From Deltaproteobacteria bacterium (GTDB taxonomy: Bacteria; Desulfobacterota; GWC2-55-46; DRME01): a stretch of 64,000 nt of DNA. The position numbers were made by a program, and so were the translations under genes. Every line of letters begins with the position of its first letter. Position 1 is the stretch's first letter. The notes below the pieces were generated by a model, which was not told the DNA's origin, ran no database searches, and saw nothing but the letters and a program-made list of their open reading frames with translations. Of the stretch, positions 41,966-62,076 are shown one piece after another. Location of the stretch: assembly GCA_011375175.1 (NCBI GenBank), contig DRME01000072.1:1782-65781 (forward strand), read 5' to 3'.

Positions 41966-41999
41966 GTTTGCCGAACATTTCATCAAAAGGAGGGGGACT

Positions 42000-44192: not shown

Positions 44193-44428
44193 ACCGTCTC
44201 GACGAGACCCCGAGCCCCGCGGGGAAGCTCTCTGAGCAGGCCCGCCTCCCCCGCCCGCACACCACTTCGATAACTCTGACTCGGGCCGAAGGGCCTCGTT
44301 CCCTTCCTTCGGGCATGAACGCGGACGCGGCTCGAAGAGCGAATGAGAGGTCTTTGGAGGTTCCCCCGGTCTCGTTACGGCGGGAGAGGGTTGTCTCTTA
44401 CGGGCGGGGCGGAACACGCCCCGCCCGT

Positions 44429-44989: not shown

Positions 44990-45569
44990 ATGTGACGTGG
45001 GTCACGGGACGGGTGAATTTCGGCGATCCCTTTAATGCGGTTGTTTTTTTCTTGATGATCGGATATAATGGAAAGCAATCGTTGATGCGGTCTTCTCGCA
45101 ACCGGCCTTCCGGGCCGGTGTCGCCCGGTCGGTTGTCGCTTGACCCTTCCGGTGCTCAAGCGGACACCTCGAAGCCCTGTGCGGCGGGACCTTCGATTTC
45201 GATTCTGCACAGACATTTGCGGTGACGCCTTTATTCGCTCGACCAATGCCTTTCGTGACCGGGTGTCCAGGAGCCTTTCCATTTTCATGTAGATATCGGC
45301 AGTGGGGTGACGGCAGGTTGGGCCGCCGGTGTTGACGTCTACAGTCTTCCCGTCCCGCCGGTTCCGGTGCCGGCAGGCTCGCGGCCGGTGAGGGGTTGTA
45401 GCTCGGTCCCGAAGGCCGCCGGAGGTGGGGCTGTTTGCAGGTGCGCGGCCTTTGGCGTCGGGTCTTTCGACTCCGGCGTCCGCTGAACTGGTGAAGCGTA
45501 GAACTCTGTAACGGTGCCGGCGGCCGGCGACTCCCTCCGACGCCGTGCGACAAAGAAGGTGACGGCCGA

Positions 45570-46952
45570 ATGCTCAAAGGTCTTCTGAGGAAAAAGCGCA
45601 ACAGCAGGAAGCTCTGCATAGTCGGTCTCGACGGCGTGCCCTGCACGCTGCTCAAGGAATACATGGACAAGGGGTATCTGCCGTCCCTGTCGCGCATACT
45701 CGATGGCGGTTTCAGGCTCCACCAGATGGACGCCTCGATCCCCGACGTCTCGTCCACGTCGTGGACCTCCTTCATGACCGGCGTGAACCCGGCCGAGCAC
45801 GGCATCTACGGCTTCATGGACCTGCGGCCCGGAGGCTACGAGCTCTTCTTCCCCAACTCGTCGGACATAAAGGCCCCGGCGCTCTGGGACATCGCCGGGA
45901 AGAGAGTCGACGGCAAGACGTCGACTCTCGCCGAGAGTTACGGAGACCGCCTTTGCGAGCCTCTTCGTTCCGTCGTGCTCAACATACCGCAGACCTACCC
46001 GGCCCGGCCTCTGAACGGCCTGCTCACCGCCGGGTTCGTCTGCCCCGACCTGAGAAAGGGCACCTACCCAGACTCGCTCTACCGCTACCTCGACTCCATC
46101 GGCTATCTCTCCGACGTCGACGCAACCAGGGCGGTGAGCGACGCCGACGGCTTCTTCAGGGAGCTGTTCGAGGCCCTCGAAAAGCGAAGGATCGCCTACG
46201 AGCACCTCATGAGGAACGAGGAGTGGGACCTCTTCATCGGCGTAGTCACCGAGACGGACAGGCTCCACCACTTCTTCTTCCACGCGGCCCGCGACGACGG
46301 CGACCCGCGCCACCGGGTCTTCGTCGACCTCTACCGGGAGATCGACTCGCTCGTGGGCTCGCTCTTCGACACCTTCATGGACATGACCGGCGGCGAGGGC
46401 TTCTTCATGACCATGTCGGACCACGGTTTCACTACACTCGAGAGGGAATTCTACATCAACGCATGGCTCAGGCGCGAGGGCTTCCTCAAGCTCGACCCCT
46501 CGGGCAGCTTCTACGAGCAGGTGGCCGCGGGCACCAGGGCCTTTGCGCTCGATCCCGCCAGGATATACATCAACGTCGAGGGGAGGTATCCGCGTTCCGG
46601 TGTCGCCGCCGCCGACAGGGACGCCGTGAAGTCGGAGCTCAAGTCCCTCCTCTCGGAGATCCGCCACAGTGACGGCAGGAAGGTCGTAAGGGAGATATAC
46701 GACGGCGACGAAATCTACGACGGACCCATGCGCGCCAGCGGGCCGGACCTGGTCTGTCTCCCCAGCGACGGCTTCGATATCAAGGGCGCCCTGAAAAAGG
46801 ACGAGCCTTTCGGAAAGGGACACTTTACGGGAATGCACACATCCTATGACGCCCACTGCGTGCTGCCCGAGGGAGCGCGGACGCCGGAGCGCCTTCAGAT
46901 AGAGAACCTCGCCTGGATCGCCCTGGAATACCTCGCCGGTCGAGGCGCTTAG
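45570..46952 (+). CDS. Alkaline-phosphatase superfamily enzyme, type I phosphodiesterase/nucleotide pyrophosphatase-like
   Basis: KLCIVGLDGVPCTLLKEYMDKGYLPSLSRI...DVSSTSWTSFMTGVNPAEHGIYGF...FMTMSDHGF: metal-ligand pattern of the PF01663-type phosphodiesterase family. Confidence 0.65.
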   Translation: MLKGLLRKKRNSRKLCIVGLDGVPCTLLKEYMDKGYLPSLSRILDGGFRLHQMDASIPDVSSTSWTSFMTGVNPAEHGIYGFMDLRPGGYELFFPNSSDIKAPALWDIAGKRVDGKTSTLAESYGDRLCEPLRSVVLNIPQTYPARPLNGLLTAGFVCPDLRKGTYPDSLYRYLDSIGYLSDVDATRAVSDADGFFRELFEALEKRRIAYEHLMRNEEWDLFIGVVTETDRLHHFFFHAARDDGDPRHRVFVDLYREIDSLVGSLFDTFMDMTGGEGFFMTMSDHGFTTLEREFYINAWLRREGFLKLDPSGSFYEQVAAGTRAFALDPARIYINVEGRYPRSGVAAADRDAVKSELKSLLSEIRHSDGRKVVREIYDGDEIYDGPMRASGPDLVCLPSDGFDIKGALKKDEPFGKGHFTGMHTSYDAHCVLPEGARTPERLQIENLAWIALEYLAGRGA

Positions 46953-46973
46953 TTCGGAAAGGAGTTACATGCC

Positions 46974-47777
46974 ATGGATCATCTCAGTGCGCTGGAGAAC
47001 AAGAGCATCTTCATAATAAGGGAGGCCTACTACAGGTTCCGCAACATCGCCATGCTCTGGTCTGTAGGCAAGGACTCTACCACCCTTCTGTGGCTTTGCC
47101 GCAAGGCCTTCTTCGGCAGGATACCCTTTCCGGTAATCCACATCGACACGGGCTACAAGTTCCCCGAGATGTACAGGTTCAGGGACGAGTACGCCAGGAA
47201 ATGGGGGCTCAACCTCATAGTGGGGCGCAACGAGGAGAAGATAGCCGAGGGCATGGGGCCCGACAAGGGCGCAAAGCTCGACTGCTGCAACGAGCTCAAG
47301 ACCAACGCCCTCAAGCAGACCATAGCGAAGTACGGGATCGACGCGCTCTTGCTGGGCATACGGCGCGACGAGCACGGAATACGCGCAAAAGAGAGGGTCT
47401 TCTCGCCGCGCGACGACGACTTCAAGTGGAACTACGAGGACCAGCCCGCCGAGCTCTGGGACCAGTACAAGTCCACCGCCGCCGAGGACAATCACTTCAG
47501 GATACATCCCATACTCCACATGACGGAGCTTGACATCTGGCGCTACATCAGGCGGGAGAATATCCCTCTCTCGGAGCTGTATCTTGCCAGGGACGGCAAG
47601 CGCTACCGGAGCCTGGGATGCGTGCCATGCTGCGGCCCCGTGGAGTCGACGGCGTCGAACGTGGACGAGATTATATACGAGATCGAACACTCCACGACCT
47701 CGGAGCGCGCCGGAAGGGCCCAGGACAAGGAGGATGCCTACACCATGCAGAAACTGCGCTCGCTGGGCTACATGTAA
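46974..47777 (+). CDS. cysD: Sulfate adenylyltransferase subunit 2
   Basis: MDHLSALENKSIFIIREAYYRFRNIAMLWSVGKDSTTLLWLCRKAFFGRIPFPVIHIDTGYKFPEMYRFRDEYARKWGLNLIV... (PAPS reductase-like fold, SxGKDS motif). Followed 13 nt later by the cysN GTPase. Confidence 0.85.
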   Translation: MDHLSALENKSIFIIREAYYRFRNIAMLWSVGKDSTTLLWLCRKAFFGRIPFPVIHIDTGYKFPEMYRFRDEYARKWGLNLIVGRNEEKIAEGMGPDKGAKLDCCNELKTNALKQTIAKYGIDALLLGIRRDEHGIRAKERVFSPRDDDFKWNYEDQPAELWDQYKSTAAEDNHFRIHPILHMTELDIWRYIRRENIPLSELYLARDGKRYRSLGCVPCCGPVESTASNVDEIIYEIEHSTTSERAGRAQDKEDAYTMQKLRSLGYM

Positions 47778-47789
47778 GGAGGAACCGCG

Positions 47790-49013
47790 ATGATGGAGGA
47801 GAATTCGCTTCACATAGTGATAGTAGGGCACGTCGACCACGGCAAGAGCACCCTTATAGGGAGGCTCTTCTACGACACCGGTTCCCTCCCCCCCGACAAG
47901 CTCGAAGAGATAAGGCGCATAAGCGCTTCCCAGGGCAGGGACACGGAGTTCGCCTATGTGATGGATCACCTCGAGGAGGAGCGCAACAAGGGCATCACCA
48001 TAGACATAGCCCATACCTTCTTCACCACCGACAGGCGCCGCTACGTCATAATAGACGCGCCCGGCCACAAGGAGTTCATAAAGAACATGATAAGCGGAAC
48101 GTCGCAGGCCGAGGCGGCGCTCCTTCTCGTCGACATAAGCCAGGGCATAAGGGAGCAGACCCGCAGGCACTGCTACATACTGAGCATGCTCGGCGTGAGA
48201 CAGGTGGCGGTGGTGGTCAACAAGATGGACATGGTCGGCTACGACCGTCAGCGCTTCGAGGCCCTGGCAACGGAGATCACGGCGCTTCTCGAAGGTCTCG
48301 GCGTGACCCCTTCCTATGTGATACCAATCAGCGCAAAGCTGGGCGACAACGTGGCGGCCCGTTGCGAGCGGCTCGACTGGTTCGACGGTCCAACGGTGCT
48401 CGAGGCCCTTGACAGTTTCGAGGCCCTCAAGGTGGAGGAGAAGGGGTTGAGGTTCCCGGTCCAGGACATCTACGACCTCGACGGTGTCGCCGTCGCCGTG
48501 GGCCGGGTGGAGGCCGGACGGATCGAAAAGGGCCGCAAGGCGATAGTCCTTCCCGACAACAGGGAGGTGACGATCCTTGAGGTGAAGAAATTCGGCGAGG
48601 ACGACATGGCCTGCGCCGGCGCCGGCGAGTGTGTGGGGCTGAGGATCGAGGGAGAGGGGCTGCGCAGAGGTCACGTGCTCGTCGACAAGCCCACGGCGAC
48701 CGTGACCGACACCATAGAGGCCAATATCTTCTGGATGGTGGAGAAGGATTACGAGATGGGCGTTCCCGTCACATGGAAGTGCGCCACCCAGGAGGCGCGC
48801 GGCACGATAAGGAAGATCAGCAAGCGCTTTGATCCCGCCTCCATCGAGATCATAGAAAAGGACGCCAGCCGCATAAAGCCCGCCGAGGTAGCCGAGGTTG
48901 AGATAAGACTCGACCATCCGGTGGTCATCGACAGGTTCGCCGACATCCCCGAGATGGGGCGCTTCGTCCTGGAGCACAGGGGATACCCCGTCGCCGGCGG
49001 CATCATAATCTGA
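47790..49013 (+). CDS. cysN: Sulfate adenylyltransferase subunit 1 (GTPase; no APS kinase fusion)
   Basis: [20 protein letters not shown] (G1), DAPGHKEF (G3), NKMD (G4); 407 aa EF-Tu-like three-domain protein. Confidence 0.85.
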
Positions 49014-49153
49014 CGATTCGGCGGCCGCGGCGAACCGGCAATGGCGTGGTCTCGGGAAGGTCCGCCGCCGTGTGCTCCACGTGGCGACGGCAAACCTGCC
49101 AGTTCCTCACATAAAAACGTCTAATCAACGAAGTATGATGTCTTCAAACGTCT

Positions 49154-49500
49154 GTGGCGCAAGTGACTACGCAGCGTTCCGTACTCTGTGAGGGAGTTGG
49201 GGCATTCTGTTGCCGGCTGATAGAGTATTGTAGTCGAAGCGGCACGGCCACCTGCTTCCCGGCCGAGAGCCTGTTGTTCGACCGCCCTCTCGCAGCCTCG
49301 CTCGCTGAGGCAAGGCTCGACACCATATGCTTCTCCATTGATGACTTTGGTGGGACAGCGGATGCCGTTCGGCGGAAGCGGGTCGCATTCGTCAAGGTAA
49401 GACGGGTGCTCGAAAACGTCCTTACAGGGCGCGGCGGGGCAAACGACCGAAGATCGAGATATGCACGACCATATTCGATTCTGCAAGCGGTTGAAATCAA
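49154..49500 (+). pseudogene. Decayed fragment of a radical SAM/SPASM gene, paralogous to the central part of 58971..60128. It lacks the Cx3Cx2C N-terminus and is frameshifted after ...ENVL
   Basis: IEYCSRSGTATCFPAESLLFDRPLAASLAEARLDTICFSIDDFGGTADAVRRKRVAFVKVRRVLENVL aligns with IEHCSRNGMATYFPTNSLLLDRDTAASLVEAGLDTIYFSLDDVGETGDAIRGSDGSFAKVKQALENVL of the intact gene. The next conserved segment PKIEVCTTVSNM appears as KIEICTTIFD in a different frame (about 49448-49490) and is followed by a stop. Confidence 0.6.
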
Positions 49501-49516
49501 GGGACCGGAGGATGGC

Positions 49517-51310
49517 GTGGCTGTTTTGTCTTCGGAAAAGATCGATTTGCTATACAACGAGGTGCGCAGGGGTGGGTGGACTAAAGGATTCTCGCTGTTG
49601 GCCTCGTCTCTGCCTTTCGATGAGGTATTGCTCCTGGACAATGTCGTCAACGGCGGCTTTGTTGGCTGGAAGTTGCTCCTTGATCTCTCTGGAATAAGAA
49701 GAGCCTTGATAGTTGAGACTCTGCTGGGGAATATAACGGAATCATTCGCACTCCATTGCGGCGAAGTCCACACGCTGCACTTCGATCAGCGGATACTGGA
49801 ATGTGTAGTGGAAAGGTTGAAGGAGAAGAAGATTGAAAATGTAACCCATGGCAGGCTTGATGGCGGCAAGGACCTGCCTTTTGTCGATAACTCCTTTGAT
49901 CTGATTGTCGTGCACGATATGGGTGTCGTATTCCAGTATCTTGACGGCGGGGCGGCACATAAAGAAAAGTTGAAATGGTTTTTGGGGGAGACAAGAAGGC
50001 TCTTGGCGGAGTCCGGTACCCTTTACCTTTCGTTCGGTAACAGGCTCGGCCTCTATAATCTTTTTCACCGGACAAGGCGCGGGAGCGGTGTTGCAACTCC
50101 AGGAAGTGAGAGGGAGTTGTTCTCAATGTATGAGGTTAAGAGGGTTCTGCGTGAAAGCGGTCTAAACTCGTTTAAATTCTATGCGGCAAACCCCTCAATA
50201 GAGGAGATGAGACAAATCAGGAGGTTGTGTTCTCCCATGGACTTTAGCTGGAGGGAGAAGGGTGGGAGCAGGGGGGTTAAAGCCGCTATAAAGGATTACT
50301 TCAAGAGTTCGGGTATATGCGCTCAGGCCTTTGTGGTCACTGCCTCAACTTCCGGGGGGGCAGGATTCTTGGAACAAATAATCGATTATTCAGGGTTGGG
50401 CGAGAAAGGATGCAAGATAAAGGATTTCAAACTGGGCAATGTCCCTATAGCGATACTCGAATCTGACGAAAACAAAGTACGTGACGGAGGTTTCGTCGTA
50501 CGCTTGCCTCTCGACAAAGAACGCATCGGTCTTTGCAAGCGCAACGCCGACACATTGAGCTTGCTGGCGGAGATGAAGTGGGAGGGGGTCGGCATATCCC
50601 GTCCCTGGAAAAAGACTTACAATGGACTGACCTTCTTTGTGGAGGATAAGATAGCGGGTGTTTCGGCCAGAGACAACCTCGGCGCTTCCTTCGCAGACTG
50701 CTTTACGAATATTGCCGATTACTTGATCGACATGCACCTGAGAACCGCAAGAAGGGCTACATTGACGGCTGATTCTTTCGTAAGGCTTTTTGAACCCTAT
50801 AAGAGCTTTCTTGAAAGCAATCTCGACAAGGCCGACGGCGGTCGTCTCGGCTCCTTCGAGAGGTTTGTGAGGACGAGGCTCGTGGGGGCGGAGCTTCCGA
50901 AGGTGCTCCAGCACGGCGACTTGAGCCTGGAGAATGTCTTGGTCGACCCGGAAACGGCTTCCGTTAATGGTATCATAGACTGGGAGTTCTCCGAGCACGA
51001 GGGACTGCCTTTTATTGACTGCCTTCAGCTGATCGCTTCCAAGCGAAGAGTGCAACAGAGGAAGACTCTCGGCGATATCTTTGCGACGGTCATCTTGCCG
51101 TTGAGGTTCGATGCCTTGGAGAAAAACTTTGTGGAAAGGTATGTCGAAGCTCTTGGAATAGACAGGAACCTTCTGGCGCCGTTGGCGATCATATCGTGGC
51201 TTCATCATATTGTAAGAAAAGTGCGATTTCAATTCTTGTGGAGCCATCCCGAGTGGAAGGAAAACGGGATAGCCGGACCATTCAGGGTCGTAAGGTCCCT
51301 GTACTTGTGA
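49517..51310 (+). CDS. Bifunctional-looking protein: class I SAM-dependent methyltransferase-like N-domain plus aminoglycoside/choline-kinase-like phosphotransferase C-domain (low-GC island gene)
   Basis: In frame with track ORF 49154..51310; the start is uncertain (GTG 49517 proposed; no in-frame ATG until far downstream). MTase-like region: LLLDLSGIRRALIVETLLGN...FDLIVVHDMGVVFQYL...ESGTLYLSFGNRLGLYN. Kinase-like region: Brenner motif HGDLSLENVLVD and IIDWEFSEHEGLPFID. Confidence 0.5.
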   Translation: MAVLSSEKIDLLYNEVRRGGWTKGFSLLASSLPFDEVLLLDNVVNGGFVGWKLLLDLSGIRRALIVETLLGNITESFALHCGEVHTLHFDQRILECVVERLKEKKIENVTHGRLDGGKDLPFVDNSFDLIVVHDMGVVFQYLDGGAAHKEKLKWFLGETRRLLAESGTLYLSFGNRLGLYNLFHRTRRGSGVATPGSERELFSMYEVKRVLRESGLNSFKFYAANPSIEEMRQIRRLCSPMDFSWREKGGSRGVKAAIKDYFKSSGICAQAFVVTASTSGGAGFLEQIIDYSGLGEKGCKIKDFKLGNVPIAILESDENKVRDGGFVVRLPLDKERIGLCKRNADTLSLLAEMKWEGVGISRPWKKTYNGLTFFVEDKIAGVSARDNLGASFADCFTNIADYLIDMHLRTARRATLTADSFVRLFEPYKSFLESNLDKADGGRLGSFERFVRTRLVGAELPKVLQHGDLSLENVLVDPETASVNGIIDWEFSEHEGLPFIDCLQLIASKRRVQQRKTLGDIFATVILPLRFDALEKNFVERYVEALGIDRNLLAPLAIISWLHHIVRKVRFQFLWSHPEWKENGIAGPFRVVRSLYL

Positions 51311-51891
51311 CGATCGCCACCGTGGACGGTATGAAGAACCGAATAGTATTGTTTTTCGCCATGGCCGACTCAGACATCGGCAACGTCTTTTCGGGACGGC
51401 CTGTTAATACTCCGGCCACAAGTATGCCTGAATATGCTATAGTAATCTCGTGGAAAAGATAGAGACTCGCAGACTATCCGAAGCAGTGTTTGAGGACAAG
51501 GGCCTTAAGCCGCTGCGGTTGATGAAGAAGGGGATTGGTCGCCTCCGAAGTGGAGGAAGTTGCAGGTCTACATGGAGAGACTGACGGGTTGGTGTCCGTT
51601 CCGGGCGATCATCAGCTCGGATAAGGCGCTCAGCTCCATGGACGGCTTTCGCGGTAGGGGCCGGAACGCTTTTGAGAGTATTTCCGGCGTGAAGATCCAC
51701 TATACTTCCATGGAAATTGTGTTTAACTACCTTGAGGGAGCCGGGGGCTTATACGCCGGCTCCCCCGGCGGAACACATCAGAGTCTCCATAATAGATATA
51801 GCCGGTCGACTTGACGGCCACCGTTGGGTATCGAAGAAGTTTCCTGAGATGGGTTAAATCGACTTTTCTTCCATCAGTGTACGCCTGAGTT

Positions 51892-53010
51892 ATGAGAGTA
51901 GAGCTTATAGAATCGTGCGACGGCCTCAAGCGGCTCTCGGGCAGATGGAATGAACTGCTGGAGGAGAGCGGCTGCGCTAACATATTCCTCACCGAGGAAT
52001 GGGTCTGGACGTGGTGGGAGTGTTTCGGTGACGGCAAGCGACTGTATATAATAACCGTGTATACCGACGAGGGAGAGCTTGTGGGTATCGCGCCCTTCTT
52101 GAGACATCGTGTCCGGACTTGCGGAATGGACTTCACGGCGGTGGGATTGCTTGGTTCGGGCGACGAAGTCTCGCCCGACTACCTCGACATAATCGTCCGT
52201 AAGAATATGAGCGACAAAGTAGCGGAAGAGGTGGCCGGCTTTCTTCTCGGCGCCGGCAAGAGGGACTGGGACCTTGTTGCTCTCAACGATGTGCTCTCCA
52301 ACTCGATCGTGATGGCCATGGTGAAGAAAATGGCCGACAGCCGGGGATTGAAGTTGTGGGACTTTCCCCACAACGCTTGTCCGTATATCCGTCTGCCCGA
52401 TACGTGGGACGAATACTCCAAGAGTATCTCCGGCAAGAAGAGATACGAGATGAGAAGGAGGCTCAAGCTGCTGAAAAAGGACCACCGTGTGGAGTTTGTG
52501 CGGCTTGAGAGGAGAGAGGATGTTGAAGACGCCCTCAGTACCTTCTTCTCCCTACATTCAGGCCGCTGGGAGGGACGGGGTAAAAAAGGGATGTTTGACG
52601 CCCATAATAATGTCATGGCCTTCCACAGGAAAGTGGCACCTCTGCTCTTTGAAAGGAACTGGCTTCGCATCTTCTTCTTGAAGGTCGACGGCAAGCCGGT
52701 GGCGGCGCTCTACGGCTTCGAATACGACCGACGACTCTTTCACTACAACGCCGGCTACGATATCAGCTGGTCGAAGTTTGGAGTGGCCAAGCAACTCATT
52801 GCCTTTGTAATCGAGGAGTCTATCGTCAATGGTCTTGTTGAGTTTGACTTCCTGAAAGGGGAGGAGCCTTACAAGTACGACTTCACTAAGACCCAGCGAC
52901 AGCTCTTCACCGCTCTGCTCTGGAGCGACTCGCTGAAAGGAAGGCTCCACAGGGTGGCTAATGGCGCCTTGCGTAAACTGAAAGGCTATAAACGACAAAT
53001 CAACACCTGA
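51892..53010 (+). CDS. FemAB-like / CelD-like GNAT-fold acyltransferase (PEP-CTERM/exosortase-locus type), paralog A
   Basis: MRVELIESCDGLKRLSGRWNELLEESGCANIFLTEEWVWTWWECFGDGKRLYIITVYTDEGELVGIAPF... Collinear with 57797..58945 (SVFLTWEWLYTWWKSFGDDKQLYIIVAGDDETRAILPLY). Low-GC coding sequence. Confidence 0.7.
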   Translation: MRVELIESCDGLKRLSGRWNELLEESGCANIFLTEEWVWTWWECFGDGKRLYIITVYTDEGELVGIAPFLRHRVRTCGMDFTAVGLLGSGDEVSPDYLDIIVRKNMSDKVAEEVAGFLLGAGKRDWDLVALNDVLSNSIVMAMVKKMADSRGLKLWDFPHNACPYIRLPDTWDEYSKSISGKKRYEMRRRLKLLKKDHRVEFVRLERREDVEDALSTFFSLHSGRWEGRGKKGMFDAHNNVMAFHRKVAPLLFERNWLRIFFLKVDGKPVAALYGFEYDRRLFHYNAGYDISWSKFGVAKQLIAFVIEESIVNGLVEFDFLKGEEPYKYDFTKTQRQLFTALLWSDSLKGRLHRVANGALRKLKGYKRQINT

Positions 53011-53039
53011 AGGTGGGGGCCGTATACGACTTGCAGGTT

Positions 53040-53340
53040 GACTTTGCTGGTGGTCAGGGAAGCTCTGATCGATTACCCTGGAGGAAATTTGCTGTAGAAG
53101 GGCCATAGGTCTGAGGGAACCGCGGGGCTATGCCCCTTTTATTACCCTGAGGTAACCTTTTTGTAAAAAGGTTCCCTCAGACTCCCTCCAAAAACTTTTA
53201 ACGCCCTGCGGATCACCCCGATTTTGCTTGCAAAATCGGGGTGATCCGCAGGGAATTTAAAGTCTTTGAAGGGCCTGGGGAAAACGTGGGCCTATGGCCC
53301 TTCTACAGAAAGTTTCCCTCAGTGTAATAAATCAGAGCTT
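53040..53340. repeat. MITE-like modular hairpin repeat element copy inside the low-GC island
   Basis: Left end ggaagctctgatcgattaccctggagg. Modules cctgaggtaacctttttgtaaaaaggttccctcag, ctccctccaaaaacttttaacg, ctgcggatcaccccgattttgcttgcaaaatcggggtgatccgcag, aaagtctttgaaggg, gaaaacgtgggcctatggcccttctacagaaagtttccc. Right end aataaatcagagcttcc. Confidence 0.85.
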
Positions 53341-53383
53341 CCATAAGAGTATAAACACTCCAAGCCTAAAAGGATGATGAACT

Positions 53384-54790
53384 ATGAGCGGTACCGGTAG
53401 ACCCAACATGATAATTTTTCTCATGGACTGCGTCAGGCCCGATCACATGTCCTGTTACGGCTATCGGAGAGAGACGACGCCCAACTTGGACAGGATGGTA
53501 AAGGAGGAAGGGACCCTCTTCAGGCAGGCTATCACTACTTCCGGATGGACACTGCCTACTCATGCTTCCCTGTTCACCGGCGTATACCCTTCTCTTCATG
53601 GGGCGAGTAAGGAATACCTCAGTCTGGACAAGACTTATCCGACGATGGCGGAGATATTGGGGGAGGTTGGCTACCAGACGGCAGGTTTCAGTTCCGTCGG
53701 CTATGTAAGCAGGGCCACAGGGCTGGATAGGGGATTCGATGCCTTTTTCGAGAGCTTCGATAAGGAAGGGATGGGCGCCAATCTCAATAGATACATGTTA
53801 AAGTATTTGGCGTTGCGGTTGCTGGCCAAGCATACCGGCCTGGGGTGGAAGGACGCCATACCCGGTAAGATCGTCAACTGGAAGGTTAAGGACTGGCTTC
53901 GCAGATGCGACCGCTCAAGGCCTTTTTTCTTGTTCATCCACTACATAGACGCACATAAGCCTTACTCGTTCAACCGCTTTTACAACCGCAAGTTCATTGG
54001 CTGCGACGGCAAACTCAAGCTGTCGAAAGAGATATCCCACTACAACTGGCCACATTTTACACTCCAACTCGACTCACTCGACAAGGAGCTCATTACAGAC
54101 CTTTATGACTCGAAGATATATACCGTGGACTACTGTATATCCGAAATTATGGATTACCTGAAGAGGCTCGGCAGTTATGACAACACGGCATTTTTTGTCA
54201 TGGCTGACCATGGAGAGATCGTCACGGACAGATACGATCACCACTTCTTTCTGAACGAAGACGTGCTGCGGATACCTCTTCTTGTGCGGTGGCCGGCGCT
54301 CTTCGAGCCAGGCACCGAGAGGGATGAACTCGTAAGTATCGTGGATATCCTCCCAACTCTCCTCGACATTGCCGGCGTGGCCACGCAAGGCCGGTTCGAT
54401 CATCTCCAGGGCCGGACTCTCCTGTCGTCCTGTGATGAAGAGAGGTTTGTGATAGCCGAGCGAGGCAAGATGCTGGATCCGTGGTTTGAGAAATTTCCGG
54501 AACTCAAGGAGCGGGATGACATCCCACCCCTCGACTGCGTTATGAAGGTATTGAGGACGAAGCGATACAAATACGTATGGTCCTCCACCGGGGAAGAGGC
54601 CCTTTACGACGTCATCGCCGACTCGGCGGAATCCGAGGACCTCGCTGCGGCGCTGCCTGAGGTGGTTGAAGAATACAAGGGATTGCTGTTTGAAACACTC
54701 AAGGGGGGGAGGAACAGGAGTGACCGGCAAAAGAGCACGGAGGTAGAGGAGACGGTGCGAAAATCTCTGGAGAGTCTTGGATACCTTTGA
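53384..54790 (+). CDS. Sulfatase-family (PF00884-like) hydrolase/transferase lacking the formylglycine CxPxR motif
   Basis: NMIIFLMDCVRPDHMSCYGYRRETTPNLDRMVKEEGTLFRQAITTSGWTLPTHASLFTGVYPSLHG; the position where sulfatases carry C/S-x-P-x-R reads GWTLPTH, so true sulfatase chemistry is doubtful. Full alkaline-phosphatase-like core follows (FLFIHYIDAHKPY..., VMADHGE). Confidence 0.6.
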   Translation: MSGTGRPNMIIFLMDCVRPDHMSCYGYRRETTPNLDRMVKEEGTLFRQAITTSGWTLPTHASLFTGVYPSLHGASKEYLSLDKTYPTMAEILGEVGYQTAGFSSVGYVSRATGLDRGFDAFFESFDKEGMGANLNRYMLKYLALRLLAKHTGLGWKDAIPGKIVNWKVKDWLRRCDRSRPFFLFIHYIDAHKPYSFNRFYNRKFIGCDGKLKLSKEISHYNWPHFTLQLDSLDKELITDLYDSKIYTVDYCISEIMDYLKRLGSYDNTAFFVMADHGEIVTDRYDHHFFLNEDVLRIPLLVRWPALFEPGTERDELVSIVDILPTLLDIAGVATQGRFDHLQGRTLLSSCDEERFVIAERGKMLDPWFEKFPELKERDDIPPLDCVMKVLRTKRYKYVWSSTGEEALYDVIADSAESEDLAAALPEVVEEYKGLLFETLKGGRNRSDRQKSTEVEETVRKSLESLGYL

Positions 54791-55035
54791 AGTGTCGGTT
54801 GCCGAAGCCGCCGCCCTGCCTTACATGATGACGGCGCTTTGTTGCTCGTGTGGAGACGAGGGGGATGGCGGTGTTGGCTTTACCACCTGGAGAGCATGAT
54901 ACTTTGCCAAGTAAGAAGGCAGCTTCTGCCGCTGCCGGTGACTGGTGGAGACGAAAGAGGGGTGCTTGATCATCCGTCTGGCGTGAGGCTTGGGCACCGG
55001 GGGAAGAGCGGAAAATGAGATGAACAGGCGATACC

Positions 55036-56079
55036 ATGAAAAAGAAGGCACTCGCATGGCTTCTGTATTACAGCGGGGTCCTGTGGCTGCGGACACTTTA
55101 CAACCGCATATTCGGTTCAAAGAAGCTGATAATACTTGCATATCACCGGGTTCTGGATATCGACCGCAACGCGTTCGCCTACGACGAGGGGGTGGTTGAC
55201 GCCTCTGTGGCCGACTTCGAATGGCAGATGAAATTCGTATCCCGCCATTTCGATGTGATAACCTTCGGCGACCTCGACAGATACGCCACAAGAGAGGCGT
55301 TGCCAAAAAATCCCCTCATTATAACATTCGATGACGGCTACAAGGACAACTATACCAATGCCTATCCCATACTCAAGAAATACGGCCTTCCGGCGGTAAT
55401 CTTTCTCGCCACCGGCCATATCGGCACGGATAAGCTCTTTTGGTGGGATAGGCTCGCCTATCTGATCAAGATGACGGATAGGAAGAGGATGGATGTTGCG
55501 CCGTCGTTAGGCTTTGATCTGAGGGGAAGGGGGGAGAGAAGCAGAGCCATCCGGGAGGTGGACGCCTGGCTCAAGACCATGGGGGACGACGAAAAGGAGA
55601 GGGTCTTAGCCTCCCTCGAAGAAACGCTCGACGTCGACATTTCCCCGGCCGTGGGCGAGGGAATGCTCCTCTCTTGGGATGACGTCGAAGCCATGTCGGA
55701 AGGTGGTGTGGAGTTCGGGGCTCATACGGACAGTCACAGGATCCTTACCAACATATCGTCATCTCAAGAGATTCTGGAAGAGATCGAGATTTCCCGTAAA
55801 AAGATCGAGGAACATATCGGCCGGCCCGTAATCTCCTTTGCCTATCCGTCGGGGAAGGTCGATGAAAGGTCCAAGGAGTTGCTTGCAAAGACTGGTCTGA
55901 AGTTTGCCTGCACATGCGAGGGGGGGAGTAACCCCATTGACAGGGACCCTCTACAACTGCGACGATTTCTCGTGAACCCCTCTATAGACAGGCGTATGTT
56001 TGCGGCTCTGCTGCTCTTTCCTTCTCTCATGAGTATGAATCTTCCCGGTGTCTTCTCGTTTCCGGCAGGGAAGAGATAA
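55036..56079 (+). CDS. Polysaccharide deacetylase family protein (exosortase/EPS-locus type)
   Basis: KLIILAYHRVLDIDRN..., NPLIITFDDGYKDNYTNAYPILKKYGLPAVIFLATGHIGT (NodB-like motif DDGY...), ...EFGAHTDSHRIL. Confidence 0.75.
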   Translation: MKKKALAWLLYYSGVLWLRTLYNRIFGSKKLIILAYHRVLDIDRNAFAYDEGVVDASVADFEWQMKFVSRHFDVITFGDLDRYATREALPKNPLIITFDDGYKDNYTNAYPILKKYGLPAVIFLATGHIGTDKLFWWDRLAYLIKMTDRKRMDVAPSLGFDLRGRGERSRAIREVDAWLKTMGDDEKERVLASLEETLDVDISPAVGEGMLLSWDDVEAMSEGGVEFGAHTDSHRILTNISSSQEILEEIEISRKKIEEHIGRPVISFAYPSGKVDERSKELLAKTGLKFACTCEGGSNPIDRDPLQLRRFLVNPSIDRRMFAALLLFPSLMSMNLPGVFSFPAGKR

Positions 56080-56166
56080 GATCGGGGCATCAAAAGAAGT
56101 ACGGAGAGGTCTTTGCCCCCATGGCTGGAGGATGAAGGGCTGCTTAGTGTGCCGCTGTGATCGACG

Positions 56167-57780
56167 ATGAACAAGAACAGCTACGAGGAGCAGACGCCCG
56201 CCGCTTCGCTTCCTCCCTGCGCCGGGCCTTCCCGCCGGGATGCCGCCGCGCCGGGGCGGCAGAGCCATCCGCTGCCGGATGCGCTCAGGGATTCGCCGGC
56301 CGTCGTCCTCGTGCTCTGCATGGCGGTCATCCTCCTCTTGGTCCTTTATATTCCGGTCTTCGCATCATTTGTGGATGTATGGTGGAACTCCAAGGTATAT
56401 TCCTACGGCTTCTTCGTCATCTTCATAAGCCTCTATCTGGCGTGGGACGACAGGGAGAGGCTCGCAAGGGCCGCCGTGGCGCCGTCGCTCGGCGCGGGCT
56501 CAGCCGTCGTGGCCGCGGCCGGCGTCCTGTATGTGGCGGGCGGGGCCGGCGCCGTGGATATGCTCCGGCAGCTCTCCTTCGTGGTCATGGTGGCTGGACT
56601 TACGCTGCTGCTGGCGGGCAGGGAGGTTCTTCGGGTGCTGTCGTTTCCCGTGGCGAACCTGCTCTTCATGATCCCCTTTCTCGACGCCGTTACCACGAAG
56701 GTCCACTGGCCGTTCCAGTTGCTCGCAGCCCGGGCCAGCGCCTGGGTGCTCAAACTCATGAGCGTGCCCGTCTTCAGGGACGCCCAGTTCCTTGAGCTGC
56801 CCACAACGCGCCTTGAAGTGGCAGTCGAGTGCAGCGGGCTGAGCTACCTCATGTCCATACTGGCCGTAAGCGTCCCGCTTGCGCACATTACGCAGCGAGG
56901 CTGGAAGAGGAAGGCGGCCCTCGTCGCCGCGGCCCTGCTCGTGGCCGTGGCGGCCAACGTCTTGAGGGTGGTCCTCATAGGGTGGTGGGTGTACTTCCAC
57001 AACCATACGACCGTTCACGGCCCGCTCCATATCTTTCAGGGATTCTTCGTCTTCCAGGTGGGGCTGGTCTTCCTGTTCATCCTCGCCTGGCTCTTTTCAC
57101 GTCTACCGGCCGCCGGGGCCGCAGGCCCGGCGCCCTCGGCGGCGGAGCCGGTGGCTGTGGACGGCCGGAGGCTGGCCCTGTCGGCCGTTACGGCCGTGGC
57201 GCTGCTCGCTTCGGTACTCGCCTGCTCGAACTTCAGGCGTCCTCAGCCCGTTGGCCTGAAAGAGGACCTCTCGGCCGTGCCCGCTGTCCTGGGCGACTGG
57301 AGGGCGAGGGGCGAGGGGGGGACGAGGCGGTGGTTCAACGAGTTCGAAGGGGCCGATACCGAGCTTCTCAGGACTTACCGGGACCGGGCCGGCAGGGAGA
57401 CGGACCTCTACATCGGCTACTTCGCATCGATGAGACAGGGCGGGGAGCTGGCCGGCTACCTCGCCACCAAGATGCACCGTGGCGTGGAGGAGACCGAGGT
57501 GGACGCAGAGGGCGGCTCCGTCAAGGTCAACAGAGCCGTGTTGCGGGCCGGGGGCGGAAGCTTTCTCGTCCACTTCTGGTACCATCTCAACGGCCGGGTG
57601 GTGACCGACCTGTACGGCGTCAAGCTGCTGACCATATACAACGCCCTCGTCAACGGACGCAGTAACGGGGCCGTCGTCGTCGTCTCGACGAGGCTCGGAG
57701 GCGACGACACGACAGCGGTGGAGGAAGGCCAGAGGCGTTTCGTCGAGACGGTCCTGGCCGTGACAGAGGGGCTTTTCTGA
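56167..57780 (+). CDS. Exosortase (EpsH/Xrt family) fused to a C-terminal EpsI-like exosortase-associated domain
   Basis: Eight or so TM helices with exosortase hallmarks: WNSKVYSYGFFVIFISLYLAW, catalytic Cys context LEVAVECSGLSYLMSIL, Arg motif AANVLRVVLIGWW. C-terminal soluble region (about 230 aa: DLYIGYFASMRQGGELAGYLATKMHRG...LVHFWYHLNGRVVTD...) resembles the EpsI family. High-GC (native) composition. Confidence 0.75.
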   Translation: MNKNSYEEQTPAASLPPCAGPSRRDAAAPGRQSHPLPDALRDSPAVVLVLCMAVILLLVLYIPVFASFVDVWWNSKVYSYGFFVIFISLYLAWDDRERLARAAVAPSLGAGSAVVAAAGVLYVAGGAGAVDMLRQLSFVVMVAGLTLLLAGREVLRVLSFPVANLLFMIPFLDAVTTKVHWPFQLLAARASAWVLKLMSVPVFRDAQFLELPTTRLEVAVECSGLSYLMSILAVSVPLAHITQRGWKRKAALVAAALLVAVAANVLRVVLIGWWVYFHNHTTVHGPLHIFQGFFVFQVGLVFLFILAWLFSRLPAAGAAGPAPSAAEPVAVDGRRLALSAVTAVALLASVLACSNFRRPQPVGLKEDLSAVPAVLGDWRARGEGGTRRWFNEFEGADTELLRTYRDRAGRETDLYIGYFASMRQGGELAGYLATKMHRGVEETEVDAEGGSVKVNRAVLRAGGGSFLVHFWYHLNGRVVTDLYGVKLLTIYNALVNGRSNGAVVVVSTRLGGDDTTAVEEGQRRFVETVLAVTEGLF

Positions 57781-57796
57781 ACGGCGGCGCAGGCTC

Positions 57797-58945
57797 TTGT
57801 CTCAGCACGTTTCGTCTGCACAACGTGGCGTAGCGAAGGACGATACAGCATTGATGAAGGTCAGGGTCGTAAGCGATGAAGGGGAGTTCCGCGCCATGAG
57901 ACAGGCGTGGGACGCCCTGCTCGGCAGGTCGGGGACGGGCAGCGTCTTCCTCACATGGGAATGGCTCTACACCTGGTGGAAGTCGTTCGGCGACGACAAG
58001 CAGCTCTACATAATTGTCGCCGGCGACGACGAGACGAGGGCCATACTCCCCCTCTACAGGCGAAAGGTCCCGGGCTTTGTCTATCCAGGCTCCGTGAAGC
58101 TCGAGTTTCTCGGCACCGGCGAAGAGCGCAGCGACGAAGTCTGTTCCTACATGCTCGACATGATAGCGGAGGCGGGCTGTGAGGAGCAGGCTTACGCCGA
58201 CATCTTCGCCTTCCTGCGCGAGGTCCGTCCCTGCGACTGGGACTTGATGTCGCTTAAGTTCGTCTCCTCCCGTTCGGGATTCATCGACGCCGCGAGGCGC
58301 TACTTCGGAGAGGACGCCTATACGGTCCATGTGGAGGAGAGCTTCCGCAACGGCATAACCCTCCTGGACGACGGCTGGCAGGGGTTCTACAACGGTCTCG
58401 GGAAAAAGACCCGCAAGATGGTGAGAAGCGGCAGGAGGCGGCTTGAGTCCATGAACGGCTTTTCATACAGGTTCCTGCAGCGGCGCGACGAGCTTAGCGG
58501 TATGCTCGACGCCTTCGTGAAGCTGAGCCTCAAGAGGTGGGGCGGGGGAGGGGCCTTCGCGAGCCCCAAGTTCAGCAGCTTCCAGAGGGCCGTGTGCGAG
58601 GAGTTCGCCGACCGGGGGATGCTCAAGCTCTCCCTGATGGAGGTCGGGGGCAGACCCGTGGCCGGCAACCTCGACTACTGCTACAGGGACACGGTGTACG
58701 GATATCAGACGGCCTTCGACGCCGGTTTCAGCAAGAACTTGAGCGTGGGGCTTCTGGGCATGCTCTACTGCATCGAGAACGCCGCCGAAGAAGGGTTCAG
58801 GAAGTATGACTGGTACAGGGTGGCCCGGGAGAGCTACAAGGAGCGCTTCATAAGCTGCTATGAAGAGATCGTGAACTTGGTGGTGGCCAGGAAGAGCTTC
58901 TACATCGCGCTGCTCGGCCTGTTAGGGAGGCTCAAGAAGCTGTGA
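57797..58945 (+). CDS. FemAB-like / CelD-like GNAT-fold acyltransferase, paralog B (high-GC)
   Basis: MKVRVVSDEGEFRAMRQAWDALLGRSGTGSVFLTWEWLYTWWKSFGDDKQLYIIVAGDD...GNLDYCYRDTVYGYQTAFDAGFSKNLSVGLLGMLYCIENAAEEGFRKYDW. Confidence 0.7.
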   Translation: MSQHVSSAQRGVAKDDTALMKVRVVSDEGEFRAMRQAWDALLGRSGTGSVFLTWEWLYTWWKSFGDDKQLYIIVAGDDETRAILPLYRRKVPGFVYPGSVKLEFLGTGEERSDEVCSYMLDMIAEAGCEEQAYADIFAFLREVRPCDWDLMSLKFVSSRSGFIDAARRYFGEDAYTVHVEESFRNGITLLDDGWQGFYNGLGKKTRKMVRSGRRRLESMNGFSYRFLQRRDELSGMLDAFVKLSLKRWGGGGAFASPKFSSFQRAVCEEFADRGMLKLSLMEVGGRPVAGNLDYCYRDTVYGYQTAFDAGFSKNLSVGLLGMLYCIENAAEEGFRKYDWYRVARESYKERFISCYEEIVNLVVARKSFYIALLGLLGRLKKL

Positions 58946-58970
58946 GAGCGTCGTCGCCTCGGAGTGTCGG

Positions 58971-60128
58971 ATGATCAGGTTGCTTGCATCAGTAGCCGAG
59001 AAGTTGGCCAGGGCCGCCGAGCTCGAGCGTTGCGACCGCAGGCTGCGGGGGCTCAACGCCATGGTCTTTCTCACCTACAGGTGCGGGAGTCGATGCAGGA
59101 CCTGCACCATGTGGAAGAGGACGGACCCGTCGTCGGAGGAGCTGGGATGGGAGCAGTGGCGCACGGTGCTCGACAGGCTCTGCGCCTACGGCATAAAGAC
59201 GGTAGAGCTCTTCGGCGGCGACGCCCTGTTGCGAAAGGACATAATCTTCCGGATGATAGAGCATTGCAGCCGGAACGGCATGGCCACCTACTTCCCTACG
59301 AACAGCCTGCTGCTCGACCGTGATACCGCGGCCTCGCTGGTAGAGGCCGGGCTCGATACCATTTACTTCTCGCTCGACGACGTCGGTGAGACGGGAGACG
59401 CCATTCGGGGAAGCGACGGCTCTTTTGCCAAGGTGAAGCAGGCGCTCGAGAACGTCCTTGCCGAGCGCGGCGAGGCGCGGCATCCGAAGATCGAGGTATG
59501 CACGACCGTATCCAACATGAACTGCGACCGTTTCGTCGAGATCGTCCGGTTCCTCTCCCGTTACCGTGTCGATACGATCAACCCCAGGGTGGTCGGCGAG
59601 TTCTCGAAGGAGAAGGTGGAGTCCTCCGTCGTCGACGGTGTGAGGGCCGAGCCCTACTTCGTGCCCAGCGACGGGAGCTCGCACCTTCTGAGCGCCGACG
59701 AACTCCGGCGCTTCAGGGAGTCGCTCGACGCGGCAGACTGTATCGAGGGCGCTCCCTTCGTCAACCGCTGGGCCGTGGACATGGCCGGCGATGACGCCTT
59801 CACAAAGGGACTCTACGAGGCGGAAAGGTGCCTGTTGTGCACCACCCTCGTCACCGTGGACCCTTACGGAAACGCCATGCCGTGCCCCATGTTCCGTGAC
59901 TACAGGCTGGGCAGCCTTGTGGAGGCGGACCCGGGGCAGGTGTGGGGCAACGCCCGTCACCGCATCTTCGTCGAACGCCAGAGGGCGGGGGCGATAGAGC
60001 TCTGCCGTAACTGCAACATAAGGATCTACTATCCGCGTCTGGCCGATGTGATGAAGTACTATTACAGGAAGGCCCGGGAGAAGGCGTGGAGGAGGTTGGG
60101 GCGGAGCGCCTCGTCCGGGACGCCGTGA
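58971..60128 (+). CDS. Radical SAM / SPASM-domain protein (EPS-locus associated)
   Basis: MVFLTYRCGSRCRTCTMW (Cx3Cx2C). ...FGGDALLRKDI... C-terminal Cys cluster CLLCTTLVTVDPYGNAMPCPMF...CRNCNI (SPASM-like). Same family as the partial gene at 63593 and the pseudogene fragment at 49154. Confidence 0.75.
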   Translation: MIRLLASVAEKLARAAELERCDRRLRGLNAMVFLTYRCGSRCRTCTMWKRTDPSSEELGWEQWRTVLDRLCAYGIKTVELFGGDALLRKDIIFRMIEHCSRNGMATYFPTNSLLLDRDTAASLVEAGLDTIYFSLDDVGETGDAIRGSDGSFAKVKQALENVLAERGEARHPKIEVCTTVSNMNCDRFVEIVRFLSRYRVDTINPRVVGEFSKEKVESSVVDGVRAEPYFVPSDGSSHLLSADELRRFRESLDAADCIEGAPFVNRWAVDMAGDDAFTKGLYEAERCLLCTTLVTVDPYGNAMPCPMFRDYRLGSLVEADPGQVWGNARHRIFVERQRAGAIELCRNCNIRIYYPRLADVMKYYYRKAREKAWRRLGRSASSGTP

Positions 60129-60772
60129 GCCCGTCGCTGTGGGGGAAGATAAGGAAGGCCTACAGGGAGGGCGGCCTCGGCCTCGTCGCCGTCAGGGCGC
60201 GGAAGGTCCTCCTGCGGAGCAACTCGGCGTGGTGGTACGTAAGGGACCTCTCCAGGCCGGTCGCGGCGCGGGATTGCGGGCTCGACGTCCGTGTATCGAG
60301 AGAAGCGCCCGGGCCGGTCGTCGAGTACATGAGGCGCAAGGAGTACCTCAACGACAGGGAGCTCCGCGAGGCGCGAAGGTCCGGCCACTGGTTCGTCGGT
60401 CTCTACGAGGGCGGCGGTGTCGCCGGCTTCTGCAAGTGCGGCTTCACGAGCGTCTACGTGAACGACTTCGGCGAGGTCCTGACTCTGCCCCCTCATGTGG
60501 CCTTCATATACGAGTATGAAATAGACGAGCGGCTGCGGGGCAGGGGGGTGGGCGGCTTCTTCGTGGGCCGGGTGCTCGAGGCGTTGCGGGAGGCCGGCTT
60601 CCGTCACGTCATCTGCCACGTGCCGCCGTGGAACAAGGCGTCGATGAAGGTCGTAGAACGGTGCGGCTTCGAGAAGGTAGGCTACATCAGGTTCGTGGAA
60701 GTGGCGGGACTCAAGTTCAGGACGGGAAGTGTCGAGACAATACTTGCATCTCTGGAGAAGGGGAGCGGCTGA
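60086..60772 (+). CDS. GNAT-family N-acetyltransferase
   Basis: HWFVGLYEGGGVAGFCKCGFTSVYVNDFGEVLTLPPHVAFIYEYEIDERLRGRGVGGFFVGRVLEALREAGFRHVICHVPPWNKASMKVVERCGFEKVG (acetyl-CoA binding R-G-x-G-x-G motif). The start is uncertain; an ATG near 60332 is also possible. Confidence 0.6.
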   Translation: MEEVGAERLVRDAVSPSLWGKIRKAYREGGLGLVAVRARKVLLRSNSAWWYVRDLSRPVAARDCGLDVRVSREAPGPVVEYMRRKEYLNDRELREARRSGHWFVGLYEGGGVAGFCKCGFTSVYVNDFGEVLTLPPHVAFIYEYEIDERLRGRGVGGFFVGRVLEALREAGFRHVICHVPPWNKASMKVVERCGFEKVGYIRFVEVAGLKFRTGSVETILASLEKGSG

Positions 60773-61869: not shown

Positions 61870-62076
61870 TTGTCATTGCGAAGAGTGATTTCCGCGACGG
61901 AGCAATCAAGTGTCTGTTTTATTCAAAGACGAAAGGGCTTTGCGGTCCTCCGCTCGCCATGACCTCATTTCGGGTTTTCCTCATCCTGATATTGCGACGA
62001 TGGGTGTCACCGACTAAGCGGGAGCAGACACAGGCCGCCACCGCATGAGCGTCAATGAACAAGTAGTGGTTATCGT

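Follow-up and report, generated by a model that had tools for sequence, protein, structure and literature searches.

Low-GC patches in an exosortase-W exopolysaccharide locus of a hydrothermal-vent bacterium point to a probable exchange of tailoring and export genes

Why does a single exopolysaccharide (EPS) locus, with all of its listed genes on the forward strand, switch base composition repeatedly from one gene to the next? The locus lies within a 64,000-nucleotide stretch of contig DRME01000072.1 from an uncultured deltaproteobacterium (hereafter the window), which is contained in a contig of 87,308 bp from a hydrothermal-vent metagenome (ERZ940665, k127_1176214). It begins at ~45.6 kb with a Phosphodiest-family protein, CysD and CysN, followed by a low-GC island and then by the exosortase XrtW/EpsI, a second FemAB-like protein (FemAB2), a radical S-adenosylmethionine (SAM)/SPASM protein (rSAM1), a GNAT protein and a DUF362 protein. 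After DUF362 comes a second low-GC block (Wzx flippase and a second radical SAM/SPASM protein, rSAM2) and, past the window, a 432-aa protein of unknown family, a Wzy_C protein and a GT4 glycosyltransferase reach to the contig end. We propose that the low-GC patches were probably imported from at least one lower-GC lineage by horizontal or recombinational exchange, either later than the XrtW core or as a later replacement. Patch 1 (~49.0-56.1 kb) would have brought a radical SAM remnant, a methyltransferase-kinase, a FemAB-like transferase, a sulfatase-like protein and a polysaccharide deacetylase of carbohydrate esterase family 4 (CE4) into the XrtW locus, and patch 2 (~61.9-64.8 kb) would likewise have brought Wzx and the second radical SAM/SPASM gene.

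The GC content of the island (49020-56100) is 52.8%, compared with 64.4% for positions 1-49013 of the window. Background windows of the same 7,081-bp length (n=839) had a standard deviation of 1.5 percentage points and never fell below 61.6%. GC content is 64.2% in the XrtW block (56167-61869), 48.7% at 61880-64000 (49.0% for 61870-64780), and 57% in the region carrying the Wzy_C gene. Along the locus, low-GC segments (52.8%, 49.0% and 57.2%) are interspersed with others at 64.2% and 60.7%, on a background of 64.4%. An earlier note, made from the letters of this DNA, had reported a low-GC island of about 45-50% within a background of about 68%. The drop is real and its borders were correctly placed, but the contrast was overstated by ~4-5 points on each side; with 52.8% and 49.0% against 64.4%, the true gaps are ~12 and ~15 points rather than ~20.

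The same genes stand apart in codon usage. GC content at third codon positions (GC3) was 0.61-0.69 in six low-GC genes and 0.79-0.93 in the 37 others, with Wzx showing the lowest GC content of all genes (47.8%; GC3 0.61). Measured as distance to the pooled background in relative synonymous codon usage (RSCU), the six low-GC genes scored z 3.3-5.8, beyond the maximum of 32 background genes, while the five XrtW-block genes and the 432-aa gene scored z -0.1 to 1.6 (0.0-1.6 for the XrtW-block genes alone). Using a tetranucleotide reference from which both the island and the XrtW block were excluded, the raw distance of the 7.1-kb island (z 16.8) lay outside all 84 equal-sized background windows, and its Markov-normalised tetranucleotide correlation (0.557) lay under the minimum of those 84 windows, compared to 0.768 for the XrtW block. 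Amino acid usage in the low-GC genes is also shifted in the direction of AT-rich codons, with more FYMINK residues (0.26-0.32 versus 0.21) and fewer GARP residues (0.20-0.25 versus 0.31). The codon-usage and tetranucleotide comparison that the earlier note had proposed therefore refutes uniformity, since all six low-GC genes and the island signature fall outside the background.

In-frame profiles located the switches in GC3 at gene borders. At the left edge of the island GC3 drops from 0.82 in cysN, and at the right edge it rises from 0.53-0.57 at the 3′ end of the deacetylase gene to 0.82 within the first 40 codons of xrtW. The second block opens with a fall from 0.72-0.80 in the DUF362 gene to 0.53 in wzx. 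Abrupt GC switches are what a chimera joining contigs of organisms with different GC contents would produce, and the source is a metagenome; such an assembly error is nevertheless extremely improbable here. Independent Logan contigs from a second run (SRR7787189) matched the window at 41940-53183 and 53289-62863 with 100% identity, crossing the cysN/island, island/XrtW and DUF362/Wzx junctions and breaking only inside copies of a repeat; at this identity the two runs sample one population. All three in-window junctions were thus reproduced. In addition, to yield a high-low-high-low-high pattern, four chimeric joins would each have had to fall at a gene border and to preserve a single direction of transcription. 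Finally, patch 1 carries a copy of the host's own repeat, which ties the island to this genome. This copy of a miniature inverted-repeat transposable element (MITE)-like family, noticed earlier within the island, is real: it occupies 53057-53342, has 52-nt terminal inverted repeats and nested palindromes, and contains the points at which the independent contigs break (53183 and 53289).

How could such patches have entered? The search for flanking repeats and an integrase suggested in the earlier note came back empty. A scan of the window detected no tRNA gene, comparison of the boundary segments for direct repeats (att sites) gave only chance matches of 7-9 nt, and no integrase or transposase family was found among the called genes from ~3.5 kb of the window to 67.8 kb. 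Thus, while composition and codon usage are atypical as in genomic islands, the integrase or tRNA gene and the flanking repeats are absent, and the patches do not form a classical integrative island. We favour a mechanism in which genes would have been exchanged through recombination at their borders or close to them, a process known from O-antigen and capsule clusters, and not by integration of a mobile island. The patches would have resided in the genome long enough to gain a copy of the host MITE, and possibly to drift part-way towards the host in third-position GC.

The left edge of patch 1 preserves a trace of the DNA that arrived. A remnant of a gene matching the native rSAM1 gene (58971-60128) occupies 49190-49490 on the forward strand. 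In tblastn, residues 21-96 of a 718-aa open reading frame (ORF; nucleotides 49214-49441) align with residues 94-169 of rSAM1 at 60.5% identity over 76 aa (72% at the nucleotide level); the match then shifts frame once ('RPKIEICTT' versus 'HPKIEVCTT') and continues to ~49490, so that the remnant spans rSAM1 residues ~94-183. Identity by codon position is 0.79/0.76/0.61, indicating that both copies diverged as functional genes under purifying selection before one of them was truncated at both ends. The incoming DNA, or its predecessor, appears therefore to have come from a locus with an rSAM1-like gene, and the donor locus would have been of the same general type. A metagenome scan with rSAM1 for an orthologue 5′ of a methyltransferase-kinase gene found none, and blastx of the island's intergenic spacers revealed no gene remnant besides the radical SAM one.

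The remnant also changes the reading of the adjacent gene, which the earlier note had taken as a methyltransferase/kinase-like fusion. Homologues are 595-601 aa long and start at ORF residue ~122; the GTG at 49517 is preceded by GGAGGA, yields a protein of 597 aa and is the start chosen in the Logan annotation. Taken from the homologue starts and the Logan call, the 718-aa 'fusion' is a 597-aa gene (49517-51310; Pfam Methyltransf_11 and APH) plus an in-frame extension of ~120 residues, back to 49154, that holds the frameshifted pseudogene remnant. A public gene call of 715 aa carries the same ~120-residue extension (49154-49516). With the 718-aa ORF as query, a word-indexed search for homologues returned only the ORF itself, and family members were recovered by an exhaustive HMMER search. 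The AlphaFold2 model of the protein (predicted local distance difference test score 88.2, predicted TM-score 0.87) retrieved class I methyltransferases, APH-type kinases and, across both domains, WbdD (4azs/4azt/4ax8) in Foldseek; profile searches matched methyltransferases at profile positions 54-238 and APH kinases at 325-508. Within the kinase motifs H-G-D...N and I-D-W, H466, I487 and W489 are present in at least 90% of 32 sequences and G467, D468, N473 and D488 are invariant. The glycine-rich SAM motif is weakly conserved across the family.

Where else do the patch genes occur? The earlier note had proposed a survey of island-gene homologues for taxonomic affinity. Such a survey identified the settings in which the closest homologues sit, namely syntenic polysaccharide cassettes on contigs of 39-57% GC, but no donor taxon. 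The sulfatase-like protein belongs to a tight clade at 50-60% identity, and at 60% its best match is the closest homologue of any island protein. That match lies in locus L011 (39.5% GC), which reads Wzz, sulfatase-like protein (60%), polysaccharide deacetylase (46%), kinase (24%, over ORF residues 116-714), B12-type radical SAM protein, Wzx (48%), a protein labelled unk428 (55% identical to the 432-aa protein) and a GT4 glycosyltransferase. Loci L012/L013 (44% GC) carry a FemAB-like protein (46-47% to the island's FemAB1), a sulfatase-like protein (56%) and a deacetylase (38%), and a locus labelled 'Hodarchaeota archaeon' (Asgard; L095, 44% GC) carries a sulfatase-like protein (50%) among glycosyltransferase and acyl-activation genes. 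In the metagenome scan with the methyltransferase-kinase alignment only distant relatives were found (24-28%), several of which adjoin wzx, deacetylase or wzy genes.

Four contigs (L094, L159, L160 and L161) have the sulfatase-like gene immediately downstream of xrtW. In L094 (39.8% GC), XrtW (NF038142, 559 bits) is followed by a sulfatase-like protein (56%), a methyltransferase, a FemAB-like protein, a deacetylase, DUF362, GFO, a methyltransferase, a radical SAM/SPASM protein, Wzx and a deacetylase. L159/L160 (56-57% GC) show the C-terminus of XrtW, a sulfatase-like protein (55%) and a methyltransferase, with L159 running onward through FemAB, deacetylase and DUF362 genes, while L161 (55% GC) has XrtW (42%), a sulfatase-like protein (57%) and a methyltransferase; the contigs of L160 and L161 end shortly after the methyltransferase gene. 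The sulfatase-like/methyltransferase/FemAB/deacetylase/DUF362 module of the vent locus is thus common in full to L094 and L159 and in part to L161. Other XrtW loci are built differently: L007-L010 (XrtW 41% and 40% identical) contain an XrtA-like set of AsnB, acyl carrier protein (ACP) and acyl-CoA ligase, with a DUF3473 deacetylase upstream of XrtW in L010, and have none of the island genes, whereas the vent locus lacks that set and has the sulfatase-like/methyltransferase/FemAB/deacetylase/DUF362 module instead. The genes of both low-GC patches belong to one recurrent cassette type, which regularly accompanies XrtW at some other loci. Since these homologues lie directly downstream of XrtW elsewhere, the island supplies genes that keep company with XrtW at those loci and not an unrelated decoration kit.

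This distribution bears on the earlier proposal that the island is an alternative decoration cassette paralogous to native high-GC genes. Two of the low-GC genes do have native counterparts, although distant ones, with FemAB1 26% identical to FemAB2 and rSAM2 23% identical to rSAM1. The sulfatase-like gene, CE4 deacetylase, methyltransferase-kinase and Wzx occur in the visible locus only in low-GC form. The term alternative cassette is therefore only partly apt. The patches supply companions that are seen beside XrtW elsewhere, here as a layer that is younger by composition.

The arrangement of L011, where the sulfatase-like, deacetylase, kinase, radical SAM, wzx and unk428 genes are contiguous, joins genes of both patches and raises the question of how many events are needed. 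A single low-GC cassette (sulfatase-like, deacetylase, kinase, radical SAM, wzx and unk43x) could have been imported and later split, either by the native XrtW block moving in or by reversion of the middle to native sequence. The patches are alike in GC3 and codon usage, the deacetylase and wzx genes directly flank the XrtW block, and the L011 stretch includes the homologue of the 432-aa gene as well. We nevertheless regard this course of events as unlikely: patch GC differs (52.8% versus 49.0%), XrtW stands at the left of the module in L094, L159 and L161 and not within it, and the edges of the XrtW block bear no insertion scars. It departs from the import of separate patches in the number of events alone.

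The low-GC genes might instead have descended vertically together with the XrtW locus, their AT-richness being kept by selection (linked, for instance, to low expression or to the composition of membrane proteins) or by mutational conditions peculiar to this region. In favour of this, other organisms have homologues of the sulfatase-like, methyltransferase, FemAB-like, deacetylase and DUF362 genes next to XrtW, and wzx and wzy are low in GC in many clusters for reasons still debated (PMC3715488). We consider such an origin improbable. The soluble cytoplasmic methyltransferase-kinase, FemAB1 and sulfatase-like protein show the same GC3 drop of 0.2 as the membrane protein Wzx, whereas FemAB2, rSAM1 and the membrane protein XrtW, encoded in the same operon-like array, have host values (0.84-0.85). 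The abruptness of the switches at gene borders and the truncated gene remnant at the left edge also speak against it.

Several observations weigh against import and have to be set beside this evidence. The patches keep the host's unusual codon preferences, with AGG as the top arginine codon and CTC as the top leucine codon, and dinucleotide relative abundance does not distinguish the island (z 1.0); both points would suit an ancestral origin. A preference for AGR codons is typical of thermophiles. The sharing of AGG and CTC is consistent with amelioration, with a donor that lived in a similar and possibly thermophilic community, and equally with long residence. GC-normalised tetranucleotide deviation in 2-kb windows placed the island within the background, in a test that has no power. 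The closest XrtW among 5.8 billion proteins is 41% identical, and neither a sister genome nor a donor was found. The order of the patch genes is unlike that of every related locus, which precludes reconstruction of a simple replacement event. The 432-aa gene has a cassette homologue (55% to L011) and yet a native composition (GC3 0.86), indicating that this genome has long contained at least part of the cassette type. Functional assignments, furthermore, all derive from families and folds. A genome-contig scan with the sulfatase-like alignment gave, among the matches listed, identities of at most 36% in many phyla, and no donor taxon can be named. Horizontal acquisition, as originally suggested for the island, consequently holds in part: a foreign or more recent origin fits the codon, tetranucleotide, amino acid, homologue and remnant evidence, while the hallmarks of island integration are lacking.

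What would the imported genes do? Pfam and NCBIfam supported every gene that the earlier note had named in the island and in the second block (Wzx and radical SAM). The enzyme it had called sulfatase-like (53384-54790) is a member of the alkaline-phosphatase superfamily (PF00884, E 3e-49), but it lacks the C/S-x-P-x-R formylglycine motif of S1 sulfatases, with which it shares the PF00884 fold and the conserved metal ligands D15 and D275-H276. In alignments to solved sulfatases its sequence W-T-L-P-T-H lies opposite S-x-P-x-R, with threonine at the nucleophile position, and with T-L-P-T-H in place of that motif formylglycine cannot form. Across 11 family members, W-[TS]-L-P-x-H is conserved together with the metal ligands. 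By sequence, the protein resembles the Thr-nucleophile phosphotransferases and phosphoesterases of its superfamily. Phosphoethanolamine (PEtN) transferases, LtaS and the nucleotide pyrophosphatases/phosphodiesterases (NPP) have the same fold and metal ligands; unlike PEtN transferases and LtaS, however, the protein has no membrane domain and, with no signal peptide evident by eye, appears cytoplasmic. The W-[TS]-L-P-x-H subfamily of PF00884, with members at L011, L012, L094, L159 and L161, is probably mis-annotated as sulfatase or arylsulfatase in public records. A role for the radical SAM/SPASM genes as anaerobic sulfatase-maturating enzymes (anSME) was also considered and rejected: there is no Cys/Ser-x-P-x-R target, and no anSME model is among the best 25 NCBIfam matches of either gene.

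The CE4 deacetylase (55036-56079; PF01522, Polysacc_deac_1, E 8e-27, 94 bits against a cutoff of 23) contains 'ITFDDGY' and 'HTDSH', which represent the TFDD and H-x-x-x-H motifs of CE4 enzymes, and has a hydrophobic segment near its N-terminus. Its PgaB/IcaB-type matches fall below cutoff, and neither TIGR03006 nor DUF3473 appeared in the Pfam and NCBIfam output; hence it is not of the XrtA-system type. FemAB1 (51892-53010) is a low-GC acyl- or aminoacyl-transferase of family PF13480 (Acetyltransf_6, E 5e-30). Wzx (62077-63573) matches PF01943 and PF13440, and the 5′ part of rSAM2 occupies 63587-64000, the gene running on to ~64780 past the window (17421-18614 in the gene call of L001). The 432-aa gene (18611-19909 in L001, window-equivalent 64777-66075) overlaps the stop codon of this low-GC radical SAM gene and encodes a protein that has no Pfam or NCBIfam match.

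From these families and the structural model, the patch genes suggest tailoring and export of a polymer, with phosphate-based and acyl or aminoacyl tailoring of an EPS that contains amino sugars. The methyltransferase-kinase is predicted to place a phosphate, possibly methylated, on a sugar, and the Thr-nucleophile enzyme would act on a phosphoester rather than on a sulfate ester. The FemAB-like enzyme may acylate or aminoacylate an amino sugar, Wzx would flip the lipid-linked unit, and the membrane-anchored CE4 enzyme would de-N-acetylate the polymer outside the cytoplasm. Sulfation is not supported: CysDN is adjacent, but the locus showed neither an adenosine 5′-phosphosulfate (APS) kinase nor a sulfotransferase.

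WbdD caps the Escherichia coli O9a O-antigen with methyl phosphate. Like WbdD, listed in the PDB as a bifunctional kinase-methyltransferase (4AZS, 4AZT, 4AX8), the methyltransferase-kinase has an N-terminal class I methyltransferase followed by an APH-like kinase in one chain and is encoded in a polysaccharide locus, with both domains aligned by Foldseek. Unlike it, whole-chain TM-scores are 0.22-0.24, and the locus is of the Wzx/Wzy_C type, with no ABC transporter among the called genes. In this context, rather than that of an ABC transporter, a chain-terminating role is unlikely. WbdD is moreover absent from the profile matches at E <= 0.01, and given this and the Wzx/Wzy-type locus we claim only that the enzyme possibly works like WbdD, not that it is a member of that family.

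The pattern as a whole has precedents. The O-antigen (rfb) clusters of Salmonella enterica consist of segments of differing GC content, all below that of typical genes and lowest in wzx and wzy, and this mosaic has been attributed to transfers, made at various times, out of sources with lower GC content (Reeves et al. 2013, PMC3715488). As in such GC-mosaic O-antigen and capsule clusters, the vent locus has low-GC segments within one polysaccharide locus, the lowest GC in wzx, tailoring genes that form blocks with no mobility genes, and flanks of housekeeping composition. It differs from the Salmonella clusters in belonging to a 64%-GC vent bacterium with an exosortase system, in the fully native composition of its XrtW block, and in being represented by one population rather than a series of strains. 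Polysaccharide deacetylases, glycosyltransferases and chain-length determinants also cluster with EpsH exosortases (Haft et al. 2006, PMC1569441). The EpsI-fused exosortase amid a deacetylase, FemAB-like transferases, Wzx/Wzy-type genes and glycosyltransferases resembles the exosortase/PEP-CTERM EPS loci of the XrtA type, but the exosortase here is XrtW and the deacetylase is PgaB/IcaB-like, not of the DUF3473/TIGR03006 type. A literature search for 'XrtW' returned nothing relevant.

The native part of the locus surrounds these patches. XrtW/EpsI (56167-57780) scores 599.5 bits with NF038142 (cutoff 425) and 92 bits with TIGR02914 (EpsI), NCBIfam thus confirming the fused EpsI domain. It is followed by FemAB2 (57797-58945), a second Acetyltransf_6 protein, and rSAM1, both recognised by Pfam and NCBIfam, and by GNAT (60086-60772) and DUF362 (60772-61869). 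On the left, the high-GC flank is formed by cysD (46974-47777; NF003587, 356 bits, above cutoff) and cysN (47790-49013; TIGR02034, 323 bits, just below the cutoff of 336), whose GC3 is 0.82-0.85. In the segment 45570-49013, immediately 5′ of the EPS genes, the Phosphodiest-family protein is 460 aa long, and CysD is followed by a CysN that is short (407 aa) and lacks an APS-kinase domain. Within the island, the 580-bp spacer contains an 84-aa ORF (51560-51814, forward strand) called in the ENA annotation; it is a doubtful gene, with no Pfam or NCBIfam match and no homologue at the related loci. At positions 1-45 kb lie genes for housekeeping and respiration (plsX-fabH-fabD-fabG-acpP-fabF, rpiB, glyA, multihaem cytochromes and a GGDEF protein). 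The multihaem cytochrome clusters (15031-20124 and 35940-40601), with many CxxCH repeats and interleaved NHL-repeat proteins, are the origin of most short direct-repeat families in the window. A scan for promoters and terminators gave numbers near shuffled expectation (promoters 6 versus 5.3; terminators 21 versus 13.8, standard deviation 3.9) and singled out no feature.

Two repeat families are dispersed through the window. The MITE-like family (~200-290 nt, nested palindromes, terminal inverted repeats of up to 52 nt) has copies in the high-GC part of the window at 3079-3475, 20126-20523, 21862-22200, 29544-29640, 34918-34969 and 41753-41972 in addition to the one in the island, and all of them are intergenic. 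Five measured copies have 47-59% GC and so create local GC dips. The second repeat is a 52-nt GC-rich hairpin, GGGGTTCGGGCCGCAAAGGCGTAAAAATCCCGCCTGGCGCGGGCCGAACCCC, which often lies beside MITE copies or gene ends and may be similar to repetitive extragenic palindromic (REP) elements or to terminators; its copies are at 3319-3370, 3607-3658, 20371-20422, 22037-22088, 29479-29530, 31980-32031 and 33493-33544. Separately, G-rich overlapping direct repeats of ~51 nt (GGCGGCCGGGGGGCGACAAGGGGGG...) lie between two genes at 24928-25029.

Beyond the import of patches, a broader and decidedly tentative idea is that one type of XrtW locus holds a conserved tailoring module, hitherto undescribed, which lineages with widely differing GC contents would exchange block by block. 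As part of the same tentative reading, its members would be the Thr-nucleophile 'pseudo-sulfatase', the FemAB-like transferase, the CE4 deacetylase, DUF362, a radical SAM/SPASM protein and a methyltransferase, which in this genome is fused to a kinase with the domains ordered as in WbdD. If this is true, two generations of the module coexist in the vent bacterium: older genes that have ameliorated (FemAB2-rSAM1-GNAT-DUF362 and the 432-aa gene) and a more recent set of low GC content. In that case the locus would naturally document how replacement proceeds by steps in an exosortase system, and its EPS would be decorated with phosphate, possibly methyl phosphate, rather than with sulfate.

Compositional patchwork is common in gene clusters for sugar coats, and its presence here will not surprise specialists of polysaccharide loci, nor does it open a long-standing question. 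Likely annotation errors are corrected, in that the 715-718-aa 'fusion' includes a pseudogene remnant, the 'sulfatase' is not of the formylglycine type and the deacetylase is not of the XrtA type. The import of low-GC patches, which we consider probable, would mean that an exosortase-type EPS locus of an uncultured vent bacterium, too, is shaped by the kind of patchwork evolution described for the O-antigen and capsule loci of pathogens. The recurrent set of genes adjacent to XrtW that has been identified here could guide work on what exosortase-W systems build.

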